Assembly: GCA_964625685.1 (NCBI GenBank)
Contig: CAZVBO010000002.1
Span: 55,440-119,439 of the forward strand
Source: an uncultured Pseudomonadales bacterium
GTDB lineage: Bacteria > Patescibacteriota > Microgenomatia > UBA1400 > PJMF01
Length of the DNA: 64,000 bases
Reading direction: 5' to 3'
The notes under the pieces were generated by a model, which saw only the letters and a program-made list of their open reading frames with translations, did no database searches and had not been told where the DNA came from. A program made the position numbers and the translations under genes. Below are positions 49,401 to 63,380 of the stretch, in pieces (the stretch's first letter is position 1; each line of letters starts with the position of its first letter).

Positions 49401-49541
49401 GGCGGTATAATACCTCCCATATGTCACTCTCAATAGCAATAGAGGGGTAGCTAATAGACATGGGATTCCCTTCGAGTTTACTATCAAGCTTCCCAAACCA
49501 AGAAAAGCACGAAAGATAACAAAGAGGGACGAATTAGGTCG

Positions 49542-49581: not shown

Positions 49582-50334
49582 ATGAATAGGGAAATAATAA
49601 TAAAAAAAATAAAAGCTGTTGGATTTTTCGATTTTACTAATTGGGTTCAAAATAACAAAGAGCTTACAATCGCTCTAATTATTGTTTTTATAATATTTAT
49701 TGATATTTCTAATCTAGACGCTTCTTTTCACAAGGCTTTTTGTTTATCTCTAACAATATTACCAACATCAGTTGTTTGCCCAGATTTTTATGATATTCCT
49801 ATTTGGTCTTTTTTTGAAGTTGCCGGTGTAATAGCGACTGTTGTTGTTGCACTTTGGTCAGTAAATATTGGATTGAAACAAGCGAATAAGCAAGAAAAAA
49901 GTGCACAGGAAATCAAAATGGACCAGGACATGCCAATTATTTTTTTGAATCCTGAACCACAGCCGAAGTTACACAAAAATGGTGAAGTGTGTCTAGAGCT
50001 TATGAATGTTGGTAAGGGGATTGCCAAAGATGTATATGTATATATTGAAGACATTTTGGTTGAAGGAAATTTTTCAATGCTCACCGCCTCACCTGATAAT
50101 TTATCTGAACTAAAGATAAAATTTATTGCTTCTGATTCTTCACCTGAAAGGCAAAAGGCTATAGCACAAAAAATTCAACATTTTTCAGAAAAAAAGGATT
50201 TGCAAATGAAAATTACCTACTCTGACATTCACGGCCGATCATTTGTTACAGATCAAATAATATTTGAAAAAAACCAAGTTGGCGACTACATGCACAACAG
50301 GGGAAAGTGGTCGTTCCGAAAGGTTCAGTCATGA
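49582..50334 (+). CDS. Hypothetical membrane protein (2-3 N-terminal TM helices, beta-rich C-terminal domain)
   Basis: 250-aa ORF with hydrophobic segments LTIALIIVFIIFIDI and FFEVAGVIATVVVALWSV. ATGA-coupled to the next gene. Confidence 0.5.
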   Translation: MNREIIIKKIKAVGFFDFTNWVQNNKELTIALIIVFIIFIDISNLDASFHKAFCLSLTILPTSVVCPDFYDIPIWSFFEVAGVIATVVVALWSVNIGLKQANKQEKSAQEIKMDQDMPIIFLNPEPQPKLHKNGEVCLELMNVGKGIAKDVYVYIEDILVEGNFSMLTASPDNLSELKIKFIASDSSPERQKAIAQKIQHFSEKKDLQMKITYSDIHGRSFVTDQIIFEKNQVGDYMHNRGKWSFRKVQS

Positions 50335-51095
50335 ACACCTTCCTCCAATTAGCAAAACATATTCTTGAACAAGTTGGTCAACCTCTTCATTACAAAGAAA
50401 TCACTCAAAAAGCCATAGAGCAGGGCCTTCAAACAGAAGGGGCAACTCCTTGGGCCACCATGAATGCTCAAATCGCCACTGACATCAAAAAGAACGGTGA
50501 AGATTCACTCTTTTATCGAAGTGAGCCAGGTTTTTATGGTCTCAATCAAGAAGGTGTGCCTAAAGTGGCTGTTTCAGAAGTAAAGGCCAAGATTACCGGT
50601 GCCTTGCATAAAGTCACCTCTGACCTCAACACTAAGCAAAAAGGCGATATTGCCGAAGCCAGAGTGGCAGAACTGATTACTTTGTATGGTGATGAGGGTC
50701 TTTCTTGTTACCGTCCAATTAGTGATGACGAAGGCATAGATATTATTGTCAAAAAAAGAGGTGATCTCGATGTAGCTTATGTTCAGGTCAAATCAACCTT
50801 TGGCAATGGCTCTGATCGTTTTGTGTGCAGTGTCAAAGAGGACAAAATCGTCAACAAAAGAAGAATGCTGATGGTCTTTGTGTACTTTGATTTGACTGAC
50901 GGTGATATTCATGAGCATGTTTTTTGTGTGCCAGCATCTGAATTTTTGAAGCTCACTCACAATGAAAATAAAAAGCCAGGTCATCGAGTTTTTACGGTCA
51001 GCCTCAATAGTCCAGACAAATCAAAATATGCCAAGTATTTGATCGAAAAAAGAGAATTGGCTAATAAAATTCTTGAAATAATGAATGAAACATAA
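50331..51095 (+). CDS. HARE-HTH domain fused to a PD-(D/E)xK-like nuclease domain
   Basis: The N-terminal FLQLAKHILEQVGQPLHYKEITQKAIEQGL..TPWATMNAQIATDIKK....FYRSEPGFYGL fits the HARE-HTH (RpoE-delta N-terminal-like) pattern. The C-terminal E..(n)..DDEGIDIIV..(n)..VQVKS fits a D...(D/E/Q)xK restriction-endonuclease-like core. Confidence 0.55.
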   Translation: MNTFLQLAKHILEQVGQPLHYKEITQKAIEQGLQTEGATPWATMNAQIATDIKKNGEDSLFYRSEPGFYGLNQEGVPKVAVSEVKAKITGALHKVTSDLNTKQKGDIAEARVAELITLYGDEGLSCYRPISDDEGIDIIVKKRGDLDVAYVQVKSTFGNGSDRFVCSVKEDKIVNKRRMLMVFVYFDLTDGDIHEHVFCVPASEFLKLTHNENKKPGHRVFTVSLNSPDKSKYAKYLIEKRELANKILEIMNET

Positions 51096-52608
51096 AGCAC
51101 ACCTAACTGCATCTGATTTATACAACTACATTCAGTGTCCTCATCGTGTATGGCGTGATATATACGGTCCTCAACAAGAAAAACTCAAAGAAACAAATCC
51201 ATTTGTAGAAATGCTCTGGGAAAAGGGTGTTCAGCACGAAAAAGAAGTGTTGGGCAGGATGGGGGAGTTAGTTGATTTGGGAAAAGGGGACCAACAAGAG
51301 CGTATCCAAGCTACCAAAAAGGCGATGGATGATGGCGTGGACTTACTTTATCAGCCAGTAATAGTTCATGAAAATCTTTTAGGTATTCCGGACTTTTTGA
51401 AAAAGTTAGATGACGGCACGTATATGGCCGTTGATGTGAAGAGTGGTAGGGGCTTTGAAGGCACAGATGATGATACTTCTGAAAATGGTCCTAAGCTCAA
51501 AAAACACTACGCTGTTCAGTTGGCTTTATATACAGAAATTTTAGAAAAGAACGGATTTAGCAATGGCCACAGACAGGCAATTATTTATGATATTGAACAC
51601 AAAGAAGTGTTATATGAATTGGACCGCCAAATTGGCGTGCGGGACCAAAGAAGCTATTGGCAATATTACCAGTGGCTCAAAGTTGAAGTTTGGAATTTGA
51701 TCTCAAATCAAAAAAGCAATGACCCTGCAATGGCGGGAATTTGCAAACTTTGTCCGTGGTACAACAGTTGCAGTTCGTGGGTCAAAGCTAACGATGACAC
51801 CACTGGCTTATTCTACGTTGGCAGAAGTGTGAGAGACACTTTGAGAAGTGATATTGGTTTGACAACTATTCACGATGCTCAAAACATTGATGTGAATGAT
51901 CTCATGGCAGAGAAGGCTAAGGACAAGCAGTTTTTACAAAGAATTGGAGAGAAAACACTTGAGAAGATCAAGATTAGAGCTGAGATTATGGCTAATAAAT
52001 TGCCACCAGTTCTTTATGATGAATTAGATCTGCCAGATATGGAATATGAGCTTTTCTTTGATATTGAGGATGATCCAACTCAAGCATTTGTTTATTTGCA
52101 TGGTGTCTACGAAAGAACCTCAAAAGGGGAGCGGTTTATTCCATTTGTGGCTTCAAGCGTGACACCAGAAGCAGAGGCTCAAGCTTGGCAAGAGTTTTGG
52201 AATTATATTCGTTCACTGCCACAGGATGATTTTGCCTTGTATTACTATTCTCACCATGAAGAGACAACTTACAAGAAAATGGCTGATCTCTATCCGCACG
52301 TTGCTACAAGAGAAGATGTTGAGTGGCTATATCAAGATTCAAGAGCGATAGATTTGTACAGGGTCATCAGTAAATCAACTGATTGGCCTGTTGGCAGTTA
52401 TTCTCTCAAGAGTATTGCCAAGTATTTAGGTTTCAGTTGGCGTGACAAGACACCATCAGGGGCACTTTCTATCCAGTGGTATAACGGCTATCTAAAAACA
52501 GGTGATCAGGCTATTTTGGAGCGTATTTTGCTCTATAACGAGGATGATTGTATTGCCACTTTGGTGATCAAAGATGCCTTGATGAAAATGGTCCCAACTA
52601 ATTCTTAG
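51085..52608 (+). CDS. TM0106-type RecB/Cas4-like nuclease fused to an RNase-H-like (YprB-type) exonuclease domain
   Basis: LTASDLYNYIQCPHRVW, DVKSGRG, QLALYTEIL and CKLCPWYNSC form a Cas4-like PD-(D/E)xK core with a 4-Cys cluster. FFDIEDDP, YYYSHHEET and LLYNEDDC form an RNase-H-like DEDD-type pattern. It overlaps the upstream gene by 11 nt. Confidence 0.7.
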   Translation: MKHKAHLTASDLYNYIQCPHRVWRDIYGPQQEKLKETNPFVEMLWEKGVQHEKEVLGRMGELVDLGKGDQQERIQATKKAMDDGVDLLYQPVIVHENLLGIPDFLKKLDDGTYMAVDVKSGRGFEGTDDDTSENGPKLKKHYAVQLALYTEILEKNGFSNGHRQAIIYDIEHKEVLYELDRQIGVRDQRSYWQYYQWLKVEVWNLISNQKSNDPAMAGICKLCPWYNSCSSWVKANDDTTGLFYVGRSVRDTLRSDIGLTTIHDAQNIDVNDLMAEKAKDKQFLQRIGEKTLEKIKIRAEIMANKLPPVLYDELDLPDMEYELFFDIEDDPTQAFVYLHGVYERTSKGERFIPFVASSVTPEAEAQAWQEFWNYIRSLPQDDFALYYYSHHEETTYKKMADLYPHVATREDVEWLYQDSRAIDLYRVISKSTDWPVGSYSLKSIAKYLGFSWRDKTPSGALSIQWYNGYLKTGDQAILERILLYNEDDCIATLVIKDALMKMVPTNS

Positions 52609-52644
52609 CTTGCAACTTTTCTACATTTGTCCCTAATATGAAGC

Positions 52645-52917
52645 ATGAGGTTTTTTGTAAATTCCAAGCTTCTAGGTGATGACCTAAAAATTGAAGAGAT
52701 TGAGTCAGCATCTGCTATTGAGAGCGAAGTAGTTTTTCAGTTTGATGGTAAAAAGATTTTCGGTAGGCTTGATTTTGATCAAAGTTCTTTGCCTAGTTTT
52801 ATTGTATTGAATAGTTGCTCAGGGACTGAAAAATATCCAGTCAATCAGATTGAACAGTTTCAGGTCCTTGATGAAGGAATTGCAGATTACTTTGGTCCAC
52901 CTATCTTTACTCAATAA
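52645..52917 (+). CDS. Small hypothetical protein (90 aa)
   Basis: ORF only. No motif and no clear RBS. Confidence 0.3.
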   Translation: MRFFVNSKLLGDDLKIEEIESASAIESEVVFQFDGKKIFGRLDFDQSSLPSFIVLNSCSGTEKYPVNQIEQFQVLDEGIADYFGPPIFTQ

Positions 52918-55411: not shown

Positions 55412-56845
55412 ATGGCACTTTCAACAAAGATCAAAACGATTCAAAACATCATGCGTCAAGACAGTGGTGTCGATGGTGATGCTCAGAGAATTTCGCAATT
55501 AGGCTGGTTGATATTCCTCAAGATTTTTGACGATCGTGAGCGAGAGCTTGAGATCATGAAAGGGGATTATGAATCACCAATGCCAGAAGAGTTGAGATGG
55601 CGAAATTGGGCATTGGACGAAGAAGGTATTACTGGTGATGAGTTATTGAACTTTGTAAACAATGACCTTTTCCCTAAGTTGAAGAACCTTGAAGTCAAAT
55701 CTACCGATGATAAAAAGGCACTTATTTTACGGTCCGTGTTTGAAGATGCTTTCAACTACATGAAGTCAGGGACCTTACTTCGTCAGGTAATCAACGAGCT
55801 GAATGATATTGACTTTGCTAGTTCAAATGACAGACATGTATTCAATGATGTGTATGAAAAAATCCTCAAGGACTTGCAGAGTGCCGGAAATGCCGGTGAG
55901 TTTTACACCCCTCGTGCAGTTACTCAATTTATTGTGGACATGGTGGATCCAAAGCTTGGCGAAAAAGTATTTGACCCCGCTTGTGGTACCGGTGGTTTTT
56001 TGACATCGGTAATTGAGCATGTTCGCAAGAATGAAGTCAAAACGGGTGAAGACAACGAAGCTTTGGCAAATTCAATATATGCAGTAGAAAAGAAACCACT
56101 GCCTCATTTGCTTTGTACAACCAATATGATTCTTCATGGTATTGATGATCCAAGCAATATTGTCAGAGGTAATTCATTGGTTCGTCCTTTGCGTGATTAC
56201 ACCGAAGATGATAGGGTCCATGTGATCGTGACTAATCCACCGTTTGGTGGGACCGAAGAAGATGGAATTGAACTTGGCTTTCCAAAGAAGTTCCAAACAA
56301 GGGAAACTGCTGATTTGTTTTTGGTCCTGATTATTCATTTACTCAAAGAGAATGGTCGAGTGGGTATAGTTTTGCCAGATGGTTCTTTATCTGGTGAAGG
56401 TGTCAAACAGAGAATCAGAGAGCATTTGCTCAATAAATGTAATTTACACACGATTATTCGTTTGCCAAACAGCGTCTTCAAGCCATATGCCACTGTTAGT
56501 ACTAATTTATTGTTTTTCTCAAAGGGTGAGCCAACCAAAGAAGTTTGGTATTACGAGCACCAACTTCCAGACGGATACAAAAGCTATTCAAAGACAAAAC
56601 CAATTCAACTAAGTGAATTTGATGTTATCAAAAAATGGTGGAGCAACAGAGAAGAAGGTCCTTTTTCATGGAAGGTTGGCATCAAAGATATTGAAGAAAA
56701 AGGTTTCAACTTAGATATCAAGAATCCAAATATCAAACGAAAGAAAATTGAACAATCACCAGAAGAAATCATTTCAGAGATTCGAGAGAATCAGAGTCAA
56801 ATTGATCAATTGTTGAGTGAGATTGAGGAACTAATCAAATCATGA
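55412..56845 (+). CDS. hsdM: Type I restriction-modification system, M subunit (N6-adenine methyltransferase)
   Basis: HsdM N-terminal domain (IMRQDSGVDGDAQRISQLGWLIFLKIFDD), motif I DPACGTGGFL and motif IV VTNPPFGG. Confidence 0.93.
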   Translation: MALSTKIKTIQNIMRQDSGVDGDAQRISQLGWLIFLKIFDDRERELEIMKGDYESPMPEELRWRNWALDEEGITGDELLNFVNNDLFPKLKNLEVKSTDDKKALILRSVFEDAFNYMKSGTLLRQVINELNDIDFASSNDRHVFNDVYEKILKDLQSAGNAGEFYTPRAVTQFIVDMVDPKLGEKVFDPACGTGGFLTSVIEHVRKNEVKTGEDNEALANSIYAVEKKPLPHLLCTTNMILHGIDDPSNIVRGNSLVRPLRDYTEDDRVHVIVTNPPFGGTEEDGIELGFPKKFQTRETADLFLVLIIHLLKENGRVGIVLPDGSLSGEGVKQRIREHLLNKCNLHTIIRLPNSVFKPYATVSTNLLFFSKGEPTKEVWYYEHQLPDGYKSYSKTKPIQLSEFDVIKKWWSNREEGPFSWKVGIKDIEEKGFNLDIKNPNIKRKKIEQSPEEIISEIRENQSQIDQLLSEIEELIKS

Positions 56846-58032
56846 GCTATACATTAGATGAACTATGCCATATAGAAAAAGGCAAAATTGGCATTACAAA
56901 AGCCGTTGATGGTGAATATCCATTAGTTACCACTGGTGAAGATTTTGGAACACACAATGAATACCATTTTGAAGGTCCTGCTGTATGTGTGCCACTAGTT
57001 TCTTCAACTGGCCACGGACACGCTAGCATCAAGAGATTGCACTATATTGAAGGAAAGTTTGCTTGTGGAAATATTTTGGCAGTACTGATTCCAAAGGATC
57101 CAAGTAAGTTGTCAGCGAAGTTTTTATACACCTATCTTACTGTTCACAAACAGGAAAAATTGGTGAGAAAAATGAAGGGGGCGGCTAATGTATCTTTGAC
57201 TTTGACAAATTTGAAAAAAGTGAAAATTGAGGACTTGCCTTCGCTGAAAGAACAGGAAAAAATATCTAGCATTTATTCGTCTATTGATAAATTTTCTTTG
57301 GAATTTTTAAAAAAAATTGAATTCAACAAAACAAGAACTAGTACTCTAAAAAATAAGGTTATTGATTTGGCTGTGTTTGGCCATTTTTTACCATATTCAA
57401 ATAATGATTATTCATTTTCAGATGATTTTGATCACTTAGTTCCAAACAAGTGGTCATTTTCTAGCTTAGAGGATATAGCAGAATTCATTGATTATAGAGG
57501 CAAGACTCCAAAAAAAGTTGATACTGGTATTAGGTTGGTCACTGCTAAAAATGTAAAGCTCGGATATTTTTCATATGAGCCAGCAGAATATATGGAATCT
57601 CATGCTTATGATGATTGGATGACAAGAGGGTTTCCTCAAAAGAATGATGTTTTATTTACCACAGAGGCCCCATTAGCTAATACATGTTTATACCCGTTTG
57701 AGCACACAGAGAAAATTGCTTTAGCACAGAGAATCATTACATTGCACCCATATAATGATAGTGATTATATAAAAAGCAGATATTTGTTTTATTGCTTATT
57801 AGCACCTTCAATAAGAAGAAAAATTCAGGCAAAAGCAACTGGTACGGCCGCTTTAGGAATTAGATCTAGTAGGCTAAAAAAAATTATTTTTCCAGTACCT
57901 TCTCAAGATGAGATGCTGAAAATTGTGAATTTTTTGGAAGTTTTCTTTGAGTTCATTGAACAAATTGGATCAAAGGTTTCAGACAATGAAGAAATCATCG
58001 ATAAACTAAAAAATCAATCTTACAAAGGATAG
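56842..58032 (+). CDS. hsdS: Type I restriction-modification system, S (specificity) subunit
   Basis: Two target-recognition halves separated by conserved spacers (LPSLKEQEKISSIY, then FPVPSQDEMLKIVNFL). ATGA overlap with hsdM. Confidence 0.85.
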   Translation: MSYTLDELCHIEKGKIGITKAVDGEYPLVTTGEDFGTHNEYHFEGPAVCVPLVSSTGHGHASIKRLHYIEGKFACGNILAVLIPKDPSKLSAKFLYTYLTVHKQEKLVRKMKGAANVSLTLTNLKKVKIEDLPSLKEQEKISSIYSSIDKFSLEFLKKIEFNKTRTSTLKNKVIDLAVFGHFLPYSNNDYSFSDDFDHLVPNKWSFSSLEDIAEFIDYRGKTPKKVDTGIRLVTAKNVKLGYFSYEPAEYMESHAYDDWMTRGFPQKNDVLFTTEAPLANTCLYPFEHTEKIALAQRIITLHPYNDSDYIKSRYLFYCLLAPSIRRKIQAKATGTAALGIRSSRLKKIIFPVPSQDEMLKIVNFLEVFFEFIEQIGSKVSDNEEIIDKLKNQSYKG

Positions 58033-58040
58033 TGACATAA

Positions 58041-61010
58041 ATGAAATCTGATTACTTCACCCCTGACGGCTATCTATCAGCTCAAAAAGTTCGAGATGTG
58101 CTCAAGAACGTTGAGTATGAGGGTAAAAAATTATCAGAGGAAAAGGTGGGGGACATAGTTGAACAATTTTGGTTTCAGGATTACTACTCCAATTTTATTT
58201 GTATCCCAGACGTTTTTGAGTTCCTTCAAGAGTATTTAGAAGAGTATGGGCCAGAAGTAAAGAGAATCGATTTCTATCGATACCACTTTTCAAAGGTTGT
58301 TACTGACGATAAAAAAAAGTCCAGCTTAGAGCTAATCTCTGTTGATTTTGAAACAAAGCAACGCAATGACATAAATCAAGACCTTTTGCAGGAAGTTCTT
58401 GATAAACATGAGATCACTAATATTTCATTTGAGTGGTTACTTGAGAAGAAGTTCATTTGGCAAATAGAAGATAAATTTGAATGGCGTCACCACACATATA
58501 CTGAGTTCTTTGCTTCTGAATACATCCTCAAGCAAAAAGAGCCGATCAAAGTTGTTGATGAGTTAGCAGTTTTGAATGTTGAAGCTGACAACTCAAAAAA
58601 CATCAAGCCTTCGTGGCATGGTGTGATCAAGTTTTTACTTCAAAGCGAAATTTCCCATGATGCGTTGAACTGGCTTATTGGATTGATCAAAGAAAACCCA
58701 CTCAATTTGAGTGAAGATCTGACAAACATCATCAGCATGTTTGCTCCTCACGATTTAGATGATTCTGAAAAATCAGAGGTTTTCAATATTATTTATGACA
58801 CCTATCAAGAAAGAATGGTTTGGTTACCGGTCTGGGCAAGAACAGGGTTGGCTAAGTTTTTTACAACCACACAGTTAGAGAAATTTGAAAAGCACTTAGA
58901 AGCTACTGATGATGAGGTCGAAACATATGTCCATCGTGGCAACGTGGTGGCAGTAGTGGGTGAATTGATTGAGATAGGAATTATTAGTGATAAAAAACAA
59001 ATTGGCTTATGGAAGGATAGATTTGTTGAGTACGCCTTGGATGAAAATGATAATGGGGTACTGCAAAGGCACAGTCTTCATGCTCTTAGGCAGTTCAAAG
59101 AAAAAGATGGCCAACTGATCCTCAAGCTAAGAAAAAACCTGAATTCGTCAGATACTTTGGTTCGAGATGCATTTATTCAGTACTGCTCAGAGTCGGCCCC
59201 AAATACAAAAGAGGCAATAGACGTTTTTGCTGATGCATATGGCGAAGGAATGTCTCGTGTGTATAGCAGACACGGTATGTATGAAATTTCTTCATTGGAA
59301 GGCTTCACATATCTAATCGACAAACTAATAGACAATAGCAATTTCTTACATGAGTTTATTGATTCTGAATCAATCTTTGATGGTGAAAGAAAAGATCCCG
59401 ATGCAGAGTTTGTTCAAAAGATTATTGACTCGGCGAGGTCAAATACAGGTTTTGCTAAAAAGTTGAGCGATCTATTGAAGGAGGTCATAAAGAATGACGA
59501 AATATACCAGGTAGAACGTTCATATTTTGTTAGAAATATTAGTTTATTTCTTTTTGATGACCGCGACAGAGGTATTGAGTTTATCAAAGACGTAATTAGT
59601 GAAGAAGACATTACAAGGCATTTTGTTCATAACTTTTTTGACATACTTCCGGAAGTTTTGACGTCTGAGAATTGGCAAGAAATATTTGAAATTTTAGAAG
59701 CAACGGATATTGAATATGTTGATCGCCACCTTGAGAGAGTTTCGTATGGTCTTAGGTTTAGAAAAGAAGCTGGTGGTAAAGAACTATTTGAAGAGATTGC
59801 CCAAAAAAGAGGGTATAAGATCGAGAAACCAAGAGATTATGAGAAAGAAGAGAAAAAGAGGCAGGATGAGCTCTACAAAGAATTCAAATTCAAGATAGAA
59901 CCTGACAAGGGTCGGTTCATGGGAGATGTCTTTGAATATTACCTCAATAATGCAGAGGTTATTGAAGAGAGATGGTCTGATTATGAAGAAGAGCGAATGC
60001 TGTTCTTGGCTTACGAAGATGGTATCAAGAGGTTAGACCCAAGAGATTTTAGAGTCACATTTGAAGAGAAGAAAAAACGAGGAGGACGTTTTAGGTGGTC
60101 CAGTCAGGCCGCTTTTTATGGCGAAATGATCAAGGTTGTTCAGCGGATGAGACCTGATTTACTGGAAGAACCAGCTGTAAGACAACACATTATCGATTTC
60201 ACTCCGTATTGCTATTCTGATGACTACAAAGTGGTCCATGAGCTAATTACTGAGATTGAACCAAGTGATATTAGTTGGCTCGTTGAGCTCTACAAAAATG
60301 AAGATGATGATCGCCGGTATTTGGTCCCTGAATCATTTATTTATTTTCTTGAGAGCTTATTGGACCACAAACAAAATGTCACTAGTGCCATTCCAACACT
60401 TAGAACATTTATTCTTGATGAAAACATCTCGGATTGGGTAAGTCGAAGTGCTTTGGAGTTGCTAGGCAAAATTGAAGCATCAAGTAAGGATTACCAAGAT
60501 TTTCTTCAAGAGGTATTTGAAAAAACTGAATACGACAAAGTAAAAGAGGAAGCAAATAGGCAATTGATTGTTTTATTTGAAGAAGAAGAAGCGATTCAAT
60601 GGAGATTTGAGCAAATCAAAGCAAAAGTTTCTCCATTCAAGAGAGAAGAAGGTGTTCACTCGGTTGGTGAACTGGAAAGTGAGCTTGATTCAAGATCATT
60701 TATATCACCTCTTTGTGAGGTAAAGACAGAAAAAATACTCAAAGATTTTTTGAAGCTTTTTGAATATGTATTAGTTAAGTATGAAACGGATGAGGGATAT
60801 TCTGCCTACCTTGAATATGTTTGGGCAGCAATTATTAGATTTGTTTATAAATTTGACGAAGAACAGTTCTTTGACTTATACGCTAGATTGAAAAAATATG
60901 TTGAGGAGTCAGAGATTTCTAGTAAGAAGAGGCCTTACCTTGAGTATTCATTGCAGAAAACCAAAACAGATTTTATAAATAAAATGGCACTTGAAGGGAG
61001 AAATGAGTAG
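58041..61010 (+). CDS. Large uncharacterised all-alpha protein (989 aa) with a STAND-type winged-helix signature but no NTPase motifs
   Basis: It starts 8 nt after the hsdS stop. FEWRHHTYTEFFASEYIL resembles the F-x-H-x-x-F-x-E-[FY]-x-A signature that follows NACHT/STAND NTPase modules. The remaining ~800 aa look like helical repeats. No GxxxxGK[ST] occurs anywhere. Confidence 0.5.
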   Translation: MKSDYFTPDGYLSAQKVRDVLKNVEYEGKKLSEEKVGDIVEQFWFQDYYSNFICIPDVFEFLQEYLEEYGPEVKRIDFYRYHFSKVVTDDKKKSSLELISVDFETKQRNDINQDLLQEVLDKHEITNISFEWLLEKKFIWQIEDKFEWRHHTYTEFFASEYILKQKEPIKVVDELAVLNVEADNSKNIKPSWHGVIKFLLQSEISHDALNWLIGLIKENPLNLSEDLTNIISMFAPHDLDDSEKSEVFNIIYDTYQERMVWLPVWARTGLAKFFTTTQLEKFEKHLEATDDEVETYVHRGNVVAVVGELIEIGIISDKKQIGLWKDRFVEYALDENDNGVLQRHSLHALRQFKEKDGQLILKLRKNLNSSDTLVRDAFIQYCSESAPNTKEAIDVFADAYGEGMSRVYSRHGMYEISSLEGFTYLIDKLIDNSNFLHEFIDSESIFDGERKDPDAEFVQKIIDSARSNTGFAKKLSDLLKEVIKNDEIYQVERSYFVRNISLFLFDDRDRGIEFIKDVISEEDITRHFVHNFFDILPEVLTSENWQEIFEILEATDIEYVDRHLERVSYGLRFRKEAGGKELFEEIAQKRGYKIEKPRDYEKEEKKRQDELYKEFKFKIEPDKGRFMGDVFEYYLNNAEVIEERWSDYEEERMLFLAYEDGIKRLDPRDFRVTFEEKKKRGGRFRWSSQAAFYGEMIKVVQRMRPDLLEEPAVRQHIIDFTPYCYSDDYKVVHELITEIEPSDISWLVELYKNEDDDRRYLVPESFIYFLESLLDHKQNVTSAIPTLRTFILDENISDWVSRSALELLGKIEASSKDYQDFLQEVFEKTEYDKVKEEANRQLIVLFEEEEAIQWRFEQIKAKVSPFKREEGVHSVGELESELDSRSFISPLCEVKTEKILKDFLKLFEYVLVKYETDEGYSAYLEYVWAAIIRFVYKFDEEQFFDLYARLKKYVEESEISSKKRPYLEYSLQKTKTDFINKMALEGRNE

Positions 61011-61833
61011 TTCTTCCTTACCAATCCATGATGATTTTTCAAACAATCCTTTTGGTTTGCCTGATCCACCGACACCTAGGATTCCAACTGATCCATTAGA
61101 AAAAATTATCTATGCCTTTGAAGCTTGTCGTGGTGGAATACAACAAAGTCAGTTTCCTAATTACTCAGTAGATTCAATAATATGGTGTTTCAGGGCATTT
61201 GAATTGGTAAACAAGCTCAATGGGGAAGTGACTCAAAATGGTAAGAATCAGATTGAGAAATGGAAAAAACAGAAAAATATAGATTCAATGGATCAGGTGA
61301 CGGCCCTTTTTATAAGGAAGAAAGCAGAATTACCTGAATTTGAACTCGAAATAGAAAATCACTTTGATAACAAACATGTATATGTTGATTACTTTAGACA
61401 TACTTCACCGACTGATAAACTCCATTGGTTGAATTTTCTAATATATTTGGGATTTATAGACAATTCTGACTATAAACTCATTGATGTGTGTGACAGAAAT
61501 GGAAAAAGATATAAGTGGACTGAATCAGGTAAACTTTTTATTACAAAAATTAGAGAAGCAATTTCTCCAAAGGAAATCTTTTCAGATGGAGTAATCACTG
61601 AAGAACTAAACTGGCACGAAAAGACAAGAAAGTTTTTGTCAAAGATTCCCAAGTGGTTTTGGTCAATTCCTATCTTGATGATTCTACTAATTTTGCTTTT
61701 TTTTGCCAAACATTGGCTTCCCGTATTTTGTCCGATTGTAACTAAAGACAAAAGTACTTATCAGGTATTCAAATCGATAGAAATTGGACCTATCAATGGT
61801 TCTGAATTATGTGAGCCAATTCCGGAAAACTAG
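61003..61833 (+). CDS. Uncharacterised protein with a single C-terminal TM helix
   Basis: The ATG at 61003 overlaps the stop of the 989-aa gene (atgagtag). The alternative start is the TTG at 60991 used by the ORF track. TM segment WFWSIPILMILLILLFFAKHWLPVF lies near the C-terminus. Confidence 0.5.
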   Translation: MSSSSLPIHDDFSNNPFGLPDPPTPRIPTDPLEKIIYAFEACRGGIQQSQFPNYSVDSIIWCFRAFELVNKLNGEVTQNGKNQIEKWKKQKNIDSMDQVTALFIRKKAELPEFELEIENHFDNKHVYVDYFRHTSPTDKLHWLNFLIYLGFIDNSDYKLIDVCDRNGKRYKWTESGKLFITKIREAISPKEIFSDGVITEELNWHEKTRKFLSKIPKWFWSIPILMILLILLFFAKHWLPVFCPIVTKDKSTYQVFKSIEIGPINGSELCEPIPEN

Positions 61834-62120
61834 AGTAATTCAAGAATCTTATCTGCAACTTCCTCACCATCATTCCATTTCAGTTTGATTTTGTGAGTTT
61901 TACCGCCCGTTGTTTCAATCAAAACCCATTTGAAACCCTTGATATTGAAAGGGTTGATCTTTGAACTGCCGTCAGCGTTGGTAGAGGTGATGACGTTGGC
62001 GATTTGTTTTGTTGGAATGGAGATTTTATTGAAGCTGAGCTTTTTTCCGATAACCACTTTTGCAGGGTAGATCTCAATCCAATCAAGGACTAATTGTTTC
62101 TTTAGTAGTTTATTTTCCAT
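61830..62120 (-). CDS. Small hypothetical protein (96 aa, beta-rich)
   Basis: ORF convergent with the R-M operon. The two stop codons overlap in CTAG at 61830-61833. No family recognised. Confidence 0.4.
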   Translation of the reverse strand: MENKLLKKQLVLDWIEIYPAKVVIGKKLSFNKISIPTKQIANVITSTNADGSSKINPFNIKGFKWVLIETTGGKTHKIKLKWNDGEEVADKILELL

Positions 62121-62162
62121 AGTAGGTTGCTTTCTATATTGCTTTGAATTATAGATCTAAAA

Positions 62163-62203
62163 AGTAGATAAGTCTACTAATAGTGCGTTTATCTTTAGTG
62201 CGT
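62163..62203. promoter_or_regulatory. Candidate operator cluster in the divergent intergenic region
   Basis: Palindrome AGTAGA-taag-TCTACT (62163-62178), followed by direct repeats TAGTGCGT at 62181-62188 and 62196-62203. Confidence 0.5.
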
Positions 62204-62217
62204 AAGGGTCTGTAATC

Positions 62218-62448
62218 GTGGATATGCTAAGCAAATCCCGTTTCACTCAAATCGTAGGTCAAAATATTCGAAAAGTTCGTTTAGATAAGGGGATGACTCA
62301 AGATGAGCTTTCTCACGAATGTGGGTTTTACAGAACCTATATCAACTTAGTTGAAACTGCTCACAGGACCCCATCTTCATTCACTTTGTTCAAAATAGCA
62401 AAGGCTCTAAAGGTCTCGGTTGATGACCTTTATCCAACCACGGTTTAG
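62218..62448 (+). CDS. XRE-family helix-turn-helix regulator (76 aa; controller/C-protein-like size)
   Basis: IRKVRLDKGMTQDELSHECGFYRTYINLVETAHRTPSSFTLFKIAKAL is a classic Cro/C1-type HTH. The start is the GTG at 62218 or the ATG at 62224. Confidence 0.8.
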   Translation: MDMLSKSRFTQIVGQNIRKVRLDKGMTQDELSHECGFYRTYINLVETAHRTPSSFTLFKIAKALKVSVDDLYPTTV

Positions 62449-62525
62449 GTAAAATCTACAAAGTTACCGTATTTCTCATTTTCCTCAAGTAGTGGTTGGG
62501 TAGAACGCCGGTTGGATGACGGTGA

Positions 62526-62547
62526 AAACGGCATATACCGTTTTTTT
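62526..62547 (+). terminator. Intrinsic terminator after the XRE gene
   Basis: aaaacgg-catata-ccgtttt with a T7 run. Confidence 0.65.
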
Positions 62548-62606
62548 GAAGCACGTCATAAAATATATCAAAATGACACAAGATGAAATGATGACAGAAT
62601 GCAAAA

Positions 62607-63380
62607 ATGAATCAGAAAAGTGACAAGTGGATTTCGAATCCAACCACAAAATATGATGAGCTAATACTCGGTGATGATGAAGCGATATCAAAGTACTCCT
62701 ATTCATTGTGTGCGGTCTTAGTTAGACTTGGATCATTTCAATATGAGTTGAAAAAGTTTAGAGAAAGCTTGGGTATAAACAAAATCTACGAATTGCCCAA
62801 GAATTTTCGTTATAAAGAACTCGGATATTGGCTAGATAGCCTAGATTTAGATTATTCAAGGCTACTTGAAGCAGGCGATTTTATTTGTTTTTTGTACAGA
62901 TTGCCCAATGACTGGCAAATGTCATTTATGTGTGCAATTGTTGCAGATTTTTTACCAATTCCAATCGAATTGCCGGCCATTGAGATATATAAGCCAAATA
63001 ACTACTTATCACTTGCCAAAAATAATTTTCCAACTTCTTTGTCGAGATATCCAGCACTTATCATCAAGAAAAATATCTCACCGACAAAGATGAGGACTTG
63101 GATCCTAGAAAATAGCAATCAAGTAAGAGATGCAACTAATCCTCTTTATGACGAGAACCTGATACGGAATGAAGAGAAAACCATCATTTGGGGGGCAATT
63201 GCGAGTCAAGTTTTTATAGATTATCCCAAAATAGATCGAGAATTTGTAGATAAGTGCGAGAAGCTAGCGAAAGATATAAACATTGATTTGGGGCTTCCGG
63301 GTACTAATGAAATTTTCAACCATAAAGAGCGATTTGAAGAAGCCATAGCTAAGTCAGATTTCCTCAAGCACAGTAGTTAG
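62607..63380 (+). CDS. Hypothetical protein (257 aa)
   Basis: ORF only. No recognisable motif. Confidence 0.4.
   Translation: MNQKSDKWISNPTTKYDELILGDDEAISKYSYSLCAVLVRLGSFQYELKKFRESLGINKIYELPKNFRYKELGYWLDSLDLDYSRLLEAGDFICFLYRLPNDWQMSFMCAIVADFLPIPIELPAIEIYKPNNYLSLAKNNFPTSLSRYPALIIKKNISPTKMRTWILENSNQVRDATNPLYDENLIRNEEKTIIWGAIASQVFIDYPKIDREFVDKCEKLAKDINIDLGLPGTNEIFNHKERFEEAIAKSDFLKHSS

Follow-up and report, generated by a model that had tools for sequence, protein, structure and literature searches.

The DNA analysed here, called the window below, is a stretch of 64,000 nucleotides (nt) from an uncultured bacterium (contig CAZVBO010000002.1, positions 55,440 to 119,439 of the forward strand). 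It carries a type I restriction-modification (R-M) operon, hsdRMS, followed by two further genes, one for a protein of 989 amino acids (aa) and one for a smaller membrane protein. By homology, the 989-aa protein is a relative of the NACHT (STAND) family without the nucleoside triphosphatase (NTPase) core. The two genes probably form, with a likelihood of about two in three in our estimate, a two-part module of the abortive-infection type, carried by an integrative island and transcribed jointly with the R-M genes.

The type I genes were complete by Pfam, with a helicase-nuclease HsdR, an N6-methyltransferase HsdM and an HsdS with two target-recognition domains. The five genes were closely packed (Table 1). 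There was a gap of 3 nt between hsdR and hsdM, an ATGA overlap between hsdM and hsdS, and a gap of 8 nt between hsdS and the open reading frame (ORF) of the 989-aa protein, whose ATG had AAGGA 11 nt on its 5' side. The partner ORF overlapped that of the 989-aa protein by 8 nt (ATGAGTAG), and the unit ended in CTAG (61830-61833), which is shared by the stop codons, both TAG, of the partner and of a convergent 96-aa ORF. An earlier note on this DNA had described the same junctions, the same kind of ORF overlap and the same end, and all were reproduced in the ORF layout. Its partner length of 280 aa was corrected to 276 aa, counted from the likely start ATG 61003, which has a GGGAGA ribosome-binding site ahead, to the stop at 61833; TTG 60991 is an alternative start in the ORF listing.

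Promoter-like and terminator-like sites in a consensus scan did not exceed the level of shuffled sequence, and none was prominent within the five-gene unit. The sole terminator-like site on the + strand of the unit was a weak 6-bp stem within hsdS, in agreement with the earlier remark that no hairpin plus T-run terminator was to be seen there. Co-transcription of the five genes is plausible, as judged from the junctions. The tRNA and Rfam scans of the window gave no matches, and blastn of the region against plasmids gave none either.

Table 1. Genes and protein regions of the five-gene unit and of its downstream neighbours (positions in the window)
Feature	Position	Strand	Evidence or remark
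hsdR, type I restriction subunit, 798 aa	53012..55408	+	Pfam ResIII 161 bits, EcoEI_R_C 67 bits, HSDR_N, Helicase_C
hsdM, type I methyltransferase, 477 aa	55412..56845	+	Pfam N6_Mtase 248 bits, HsdM_N
hsdS, specificity subunit, 396 aa; variable cassette among related islands	56842..58032	+	Pfam Methylase_S, two stretches
989-aa putative NTPase-less NACHT-family sensor protein	58041..61010	+	full-length homology to 1310-1435-aa NACHT proteins
Predicted NACHT-module remnant (helical lid and winged-helix-like region), residues ~27-165	58119..58535	+	BLASTP to P0061; AlphaFold2 (AF2) model
Motif FEWRHHTYTEFFASEYIL, residues 146-163	58476..58529	+	alignment with relatives
HEAT-like alpha-solenoid, residues ~200-860, presumed ligand-sensing body	58638..60620	+	
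C-terminal five-helix module, residues ~862-989, presumed effector dock	60625..61007	+	exchanged with partner gene
276-aa partner, presumed effector: ~215-aa cytoplasmic domain, one transmembrane helix, short Cys-containing tail	61003..61833	+	
Partner transmembrane helix, residues ~217-240	61651..61722	+	Kyte-Doolittle 19-residue maximum 2.26; AF2 long helix 217-246
Convergent 96-aa gene closing the unit, conserved context	61830..62120	-	CTAG stop/stop overlap
XRE-family helix-turn-helix (HTH) gene, 74 aa, candidate island regulator	62224..62448	+	Pfam HTH_3 47.7 bits

The 989-aa protein and its NACHT-bearing relatives

An exhaustive profile search, which covered 1.84 billion cluster representatives, revealed 413 relatives of the 989-aa protein, 260 of them with E<1e-30. 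A word-indexed search of 5.8 billion proteins gave nine clusters only, all unnamed. About half of the near-full-length relatives were larger (1310-1435 aa); they exceeded the window protein by 150-280 residues N-terminally and by about 185 C-terminally. One of these, P0061, was matched over residues 24-984 of the window protein (E=7e-159), and it carried a Pfam NACHT domain (38.1 bits, cut-off 26.7) at residues 51-196 with GEPGSGKT and CLDGLDE. In BLASTP, residues 27-201 of the window protein were aligned with residues 195-385 of P0061, right behind this NACHT match, so the window protein would retain the helical-lid and winged-helix region of NACHT proteins. Among 64 N-extended relatives, Walker A ([AG]EPGxGK[ST]) was present in 49 and hhhD[GAS][LFI]DE in nearly all, the latter being the D[GAS]hDE signature that marks NACHT among the STAND NTPases (10.1101/2022.07.19.500537). 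The earlier label of an NTPase-less STAND-like sensor was thereby borne out, as the protein is homologous to proteins above the Pfam NACHT threshold and starts just past their P-loop core.

Within the 989-aa protein, neither Walker A (G/AxxxxGK[ST]), nor any GK[ST], nor the Walker B signature D[GAS]hDE was found. Its AlphaFold model (predicted local distance difference test score, pLDDT, 85.2) was helical save for four short beta-hairpins, which agrees with the all-alpha protein without Walker A that had been noticed before. Helices occupied residues 33-135 and were followed by a beta-hairpin (139-148) directly ahead of the helix of the FEWRHHTYTEFFASEYIL motif. The earlier note had likened this motif to the winged-helix signature of NACHT/STAND modules, for which a conserved form of the type F-x-[HN]-x-x-x-Q/T-E-[FY]-L-A-A is expected beyond the NTPase core. 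The motif was aligned with FENPEFQEYLAS of the NACHT-bearing relatives, and W148, H150, H151, T154 and E155 were invariant in a 10-sequence alignment. The NTPase-less proteins had the form (F/W)xHH(T/S)(I/L)(T/Q)E(F/Y)LAA and the P-loop proteins FxN(T/A)EFQEYLAA, with the HH specific to the former standing where the latter have N(T/A).

A C-terminal repeat sensor of the NACHT/STAND type was present as a HEAT-like solenoid of about 650 residues. Pfam HEAT_2 matched residues 779-842 (36 bits, cut-off 27.7), the sole match of the library scan. Fold searches returned generic HEAT/ARM scaffolds only. The earlier note had counted a match to a plain HEAT-repeat structure against its STAND assignment; such a match was indeed obtained at the fold level, but it is overridden by the sequence homology to NACHT-bearing proteins. 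A profile search of PDB sequences with the family alignment gave only designed helical proteins (E>=0.03), and the profile of the P-loop clade gave alphaRep/HEAT proteins and, with E values too high to be of use (0.13-0.18), NLRC4 and NOD2. Scans of the 989-aa protein and its partner with PADLOC, NCBIfam and PHROGs yielded nothing beyond a chance-level LmuC match (E=0.02).

For 121 near-full-length representatives, the region they share was used to build a neighbour-joining tree with midpoint root. The root split 55 NTPase-less proteins from 66 others, which were 65 proteins with P-loop motifs and P0098, an N-terminally truncated fragment. Mean identity was 29-30% inside each clade and 23% between the two. 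The NTPase-less clade had invariant residues of its own, and conservation reached up to the start position and the first ~26 residues. This pattern points to a single, ancient loss of the P-loop core followed by long diversification. The NTPase-less clade would be a functional lineage and not a product of decay, because its members keep 29-30% identity to one another together with intact conserved motifs. Splitting of the NTPase into a neighbouring gene was considered and rejected. A NACHT-core hidden Markov model run over 82 loci matched members of the P-loop clade only, and since no NTPase-less locus had a separate NACHT gene, the NTPase appears to have been lost rather than split off.

By the record titles of L014-L029, the relatives came mainly from metagenome-assembled genomes (MAGs) of Patescibacteria, that is, the candidate phyla radiation (CPR): Woesebacteria, Curtissbacteria, Levyibacteriota, Roizmanbacteria and WWE3. 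Several MAGs were instead labelled as uncultured Gammaproteobacteria or Pseudomonadales, a sign either of cross-phylum transfer or of binning or naming artefacts. One locus (L008, 3127-8089) had in-frame stops under table 11, and the translation of the locus copy did not match the query; an alternative genetic code, as UGA is recoded in some CPR lineages, or assembly errors may be responsible. For the NACHT-bearing relatives, PADLOC gave only the generic models mad8 (P-loop) and mad1 (HTH). An HTH of the MerR/excisionase type stood ahead of NACHT in P0066 and P0075, and a HARE-HTH behind the nuclease in P0142, which hints at DNA-linked regulation or sensing in the NACHT-bearing sister clade.

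Effector classes and exchange of the partner gene

Fusion and fission were read across the same 82 loci. Behind members of about 990-1010 aa there was always a gene for 190-345 aa in the same direction and in tight coupling, and members of about 1130-1210 aa had a C-terminal extension in place of the partner, with two possible exceptions (L037 and L042). Several effector classes were recognized. TIR_2 (cut-off 28) scored 32.9 bits in the fused C-terminal extension of L016 and 44.1 bits in the separate partner of L027, and a TIR domain of L028 reached 24.9 bits (cut-off 21.3); the partner in the window had no TIR. The PD-(D/E)xK motif E...Q...RE..D..D[FL]hI.YG..hhhE.K was conserved in 72 C-terminal domains, mostly of the P-loop clade, and an Mrr-like nuclease was a separate partner in L009, L014 and L015 and fused in P0102. 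An all-alpha class of extension was HEPN-like, with an invariant R104-x4-H109 (RNxFxH) in six aligned C-terminal extensions and no match to Pfam or PDB profiles.

Membrane proteins made up a further class of partner: the 276-aa protein of the window, those of L003 and L022, and the split pairs (220 aa plus 64-94 aa) of L001, L002 and L004. In the split pairs (L001 10836-11787, L002 7676-8535, L004 9639-10488) the last ~23 residues of the ~220-aa protein recurred, at 57-70% identity, as the N-terminus of the next 64-94-aa membrane mini-protein. This repeat could have come about by fission of the gene in recent times, by duplication of the junction or by programmed frameshifting.

The window partner was a near-orphan, with three clusters among the 5.8 billion proteins and no match in Pfam, PADLOC, NCBIfam or PHROGs. 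Its hydrophobic helix was followed by a tail of 36 residues with two conserved cysteines, and this tail resembled the 94-aa membrane mini-protein of L001 (BLASTP 1e-6). The partner is thus best predicted as a single-pass protein with a small extracytoplasmic tail. The single C-terminal transmembrane helix reported before was found again, but the protein is not tail-anchored in the strict sense, given the 36 residues beyond the helix. By its position, and by the other effector classes of the family, it may be a membrane-damaging effector.

The partner gene proved to be an exchangeable cassette. The island of the window was ~91% identical in DNA to those of L001 and L014 outside the target-recognition regions of hsdS and the partner gene (60990-61830). 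The slot held the 276-aa membrane protein in the window, an unrelated 220-aa protein with the 94-aa mini-protein in L001, and the Mrr-like protein in L014, and DNA similarity to the relatives restarted exactly at 61831, past the partner gene. In L014 the break lay inside the big gene, where DNA similarity ended at 60624; identity of the big proteins was 88-100% up to residue ~850 and then fell to 52, 23 and 16%. Of the two relatives compared, one (L014) thus had an exchange that took in the last ~125 residues of the big protein as well as the partner. Similar C-terminal breaks accompanied effector changes between L042 and L045 and between L046 and L047, and in fused relatives the effector domain came directly behind the five-helix module. 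Because the breaks in identity fall there and go with effector changes, residues ~862-989 are likely to serve as an effector-docking adaptor.

The TIR, nuclease and HEPN-like domains, found now fused and now separate, and the cassette-like exchange of partners support the view of the pair as a putative sensor and effector, which the earlier note had offered as a conjecture.

A second variable cassette was hsdS, in which DNA identity was lost over 56562-58046 against L001 and over 57214-58036 against L014. The HsdS of L001 was half-size (185 aa), and that of L014 differed in the second target-recognition half. Evidently HsdS specificity is being shuffled beside a conserved sensor.

Restriction linkage and proposed function

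At some classical type I loci there are restriction-linked passengers, such as the prrC anticodon nuclease and the rlo genes, which act as back-up defence. Such linkage was assessed here on 40 lineages, obtained by clustering of the loci at 70% identity; 17 of them were well flanked (at least 3 kb on each side). In raw counts, R-M genes were directly adjacent in five of the 17 and lay within 10 kb in seven; a serine recombinase within 10 kb was commoner (nine of 17). Six arrangements were observed. The sensor gene followed hsdRMS in the clade of the window, hsdM-hsdS in L044 and L050, hsdR with an hsdM-S fusion in L019, L043 and L075, and type III-like res and mod in L023, L062 and L029. Sensor and partner preceded hsdMSR of another type I family in L003, L041 and L073, and a TIR-fused sensor was convergent with hsdSMR in L028, L038 and L068. 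A member of the P-loop clade, L074, was R-M-adjacent as well. The presence of R-M genes differed between close lineages (L021 and L040 vs L028; L018 vs L023).

The linkage thus appears recurrent and often operonic, yet optional and not bound to one R-M family. The restriction linkage first proposed for the pair holds in so far as it recurs; it is not consistent. The further suggestion that the sensor might rely on the HsdR motor was not upheld, since most relatives had no R-M neighbour and the NTPase-less loci had no separate NACHT core. Replacement of the lost NTPase by HsdR was rejected as a general mechanism on the first of these grounds.

Several known systems share features with the pair. 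The bNACHT proteins (10.1101/2022.07.19.500537) resemble it through the homology to D[GAS]hDE-bearing NACHT proteins, the common helical and winged-helix region behind the NTPase, the HEAT repeat-type sensor and the effector range (TIR, restriction endonuclease, HEPN, transmembrane). They differ in that the window clade has no Walker A, Walker B or sensor 1, while bNACHT01 requires its Walker A lysine, and in that their effectors are N-terminal, whereas those of the window family are C-terminal or encoded by a separate downstream gene. Avs proteins likewise combine a repeat sensor for a phage protein with swappable effectors and are transferred horizontally on defence islands; they have a central STAND ATPase and N-terminal effectors, whereas the window family descends from NACHT and the window clade is ATPase-free. 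No Avs model of PADLOC matched the family, and neither a described family nor a specific PADLOC model accounts for the NTPase-less clade or its P-loop sisters.

The closest precedents for a receptor without NTPase are Dsr1 and DSR2. The alpha-solenoid of DSR2 binds the phage tail tube protein without any NTPase (PMC11850899), and the Avs7 sensor is also found in the NTPase-less Dsr1 (PMC13581612), so that one sensor serves STAND and STAND-less architectures. The likeness lies in the general architecture only, an NTPase-free receptor whose alpha-solenoid sensor directly controls an effector, which is an enzyme in Dsr1 and DSR2. The window proteins have no SIR2 domain and no detectable sequence similarity (Pfam, PADLOC), and the window clade retains part of the NOD (lid and winged-helix domain), with an effector that is C-terminal or encoded in trans, a membrane protein in the window. 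PrrC and RloC (PMC12707154) are comparable as passengers in an hsd operon and plausibly as a second line of defence. They differ from the pair, which has no ABC-ATPase-like head or anticodon nuclease domain (no match in Pfam, NCBIfam or PADLOC) and for whose family the R-M linkage is optional.

A mechanism can be proposed along these lines. The 989-aa protein would be a receptor of the NACHT/NLR family which lost its P-loop core in one ancient event and kept the lid and winged-helix remnant, the HEAT-like solenoid of ~650 residues and the C-terminal five-helix docking module. The solenoid would bind a protein of a phage or mobile element, or a perturbed host protein, and the bound receptor would take up another conformation or oligomeric state with no need of a nucleotide switch, as DSR2 and Dsr1 do. 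The docking module would then release or cluster the 276-aa single-pass membrane partner, which would damage the membrane, and the infected cell would be halted. The R-M system would act first, with the pair as an independent second layer.

Some points weigh against this mechanism. Every functional step of the pair is deduced, for all members of the family, and the evidence for co-transcription with hsdRMS consists of the gene junctions. The window partner has no recognizable catalytic or pore-forming domain, PADLOC, NCBIfam and PHROGs are silent on both proteins, and the AF2 model of the partner, made from three sequences, was unusable (pLDDT 43.8). Its soluble part is collinear with that of the p220-type partners, but the hhalign probability was 1.7% and homology is not claimed. 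Defence by bNACHT01 needs the Walker A lysine (10.1101/2022.07.19.500537), a requirement that P-loop-free signalling by a NACHT relative would have to bypass.

Among the alternatives, a PrrC-like guardian of the R-M system is the one that fares best, though it is unlikely. The pair would monitor the type I enzyme, with the HEAT solenoid bound to HsdM, HsdS or HsdR, and would damage the membrane when restriction is disabled, for example by a DNA-mimic or Stp-like anti-restriction protein. The precedent is PrrC, whose gene lies inside a type IC locus and which senses inhibition of that locus (PMC12707154). The embedding in the hsd operon with junctions of 8 nt (an overlap of that length between hsdS and the big gene in L001 and L014) fits such a role, as does R-M adjacency in six arrangements with at least four R-M families, type III included, and in L074. 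The same diversity is hard to reconcile with a specific guard interface, as the linked systems come from families that are not related to one another and include one in convergent orientation. Only five of the 17 lineages have R-M genes directly adjacent, close relatives differ in this respect, and a hypervariable hsdS stands beside a sensor that is 91% conserved. R-M genes are moreover the commonest defence genes, so that shared islands are expected. The optional linkage to many R-M families is therefore better explained by layers of defence that share islands than by a guard specific to the Hsd complex.

A role outside defence is rather less probable still. The pair would be a scaffold with a membrane anchor that serves the island in maintenance, addiction, exclusion or transfer, or the large protein would be a HEAT-repeat housekeeping scaffold. 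Fold searches did return generic HEAT/ARM scaffolds alone, the window partner has no recognizable toxic domain, and the family accompanies serine recombinases and Prim-Pol primases and, in L017, TraG/VirB4-like genes. Fusions to TIR, PD-(D/E)xK and Rx4H domains together with NACHT descent are hallmarks of conflict systems, however, and rapid effector exchange is not expected of a housekeeping scaffold. The family is also rare and patchy (the nine clusters of the word-indexed search) and lies outside named families.

That the 989-aa gene is a decaying NACHT defence gene, which lost its 5' end on insertion behind hsdS and is now non-functional, would account for the missing P-loop core and for a start 8 nt past hsdS, but this is very improbable and effectively refuted by the clade structure: the NTPase-less clade is monophyletic, has at least 55 representatives at 50% clustering with intact full-length ORFs, shares invariant motifs, the clade-specific HH signature and, throughout, the N-terminal ~26 residues and the start, and occurs in many contexts unrelated to hsdS.

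The nucleotide switch is a defining feature of STAND/NLR receptors. The pair looks like a form of STAND-type defence that has not been described before and that occurs mostly in CPR metagenome genomes. A large natural clade without P-loop, in which the receptor body and a portion of the NOD are preserved, is a ready test of what the NTPase is required for. The family would be a second, independent case, beside Avs7 and Dsr1, of a sensor common to STAND and STAND-less immunity. A docking module through which effectors can be swapped as gene cassettes would help to explain modular immune receptors and to engineer them. The family is apparently among the few defence candidates of CPR bacteria other than R-M, and the recurrent joining of its genes to R-M operons is relevant to the organization of layered defence. 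The broader proposal, an ancient, diversified and CPR-concentrated clade derived from NACHT/NLR proteins that has no nucleotide switch but retains the lid and winged-helix remnant with its HH motif, docks interchangeable effectors in cis or in trans through a C-terminal adaptor and has repeatedly been wired into R-M operons, is tentative as a whole, and we hold it less firmly than the two-part module itself. If this proposal is true, NLR signalling of the oligomerization type can run without NTP binding.

Island context

The window is chromosomal. Close to 49.2 kb, on the upstream side, lie cysS, radC and a bactofilin gene. In L010, which is a longer contig of this genome, the pair was followed by the 96-aa gene, the XRE regulator, a gene for 257 aa and finally a large serine recombinase, with ychF and then rpsF-ssb-rpsR beyond the recombinase. 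From this layout the R-M operon and the pair are assigned to an integrative island of ~17 kb. The recombinase at the island end has 567 aa and lies just outside the window (L010 11000-15000). At the other side, DNA similarity between the window and L001 starts at 49427.

The large serine recombinase within 10 kb in nine of the 17 well-flanked lineages agrees with a setting that appears mobile and defence-rich. In L002, L027, L030 and L031 the big gene had an XRE gene on its upstream side at a distance of 69-84 nt, which suggests XRE-type control of the sensor module. The convergent 96-aa gene was also present in L001, L014 and L010-13. Over 61830-63380, the 96-aa gene (weak bPH-like similarity), the XRE gene and the 257-aa gene of unknown type were kept in those relatives whose sequences were of sufficient length.

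Right upstream of hsdR (49582-52917) a block of four genes was ~91% conserved in L001 and L014. It encoded a 250-aa unknown protein, a 262-aa protein with HARE-HTH and PD-(D/E)xK, a 507-aa protein with PDDEXK_1 and RNase_H_2, and a 90-aa unknown protein, and the island may have in it one more module for restriction or defence.

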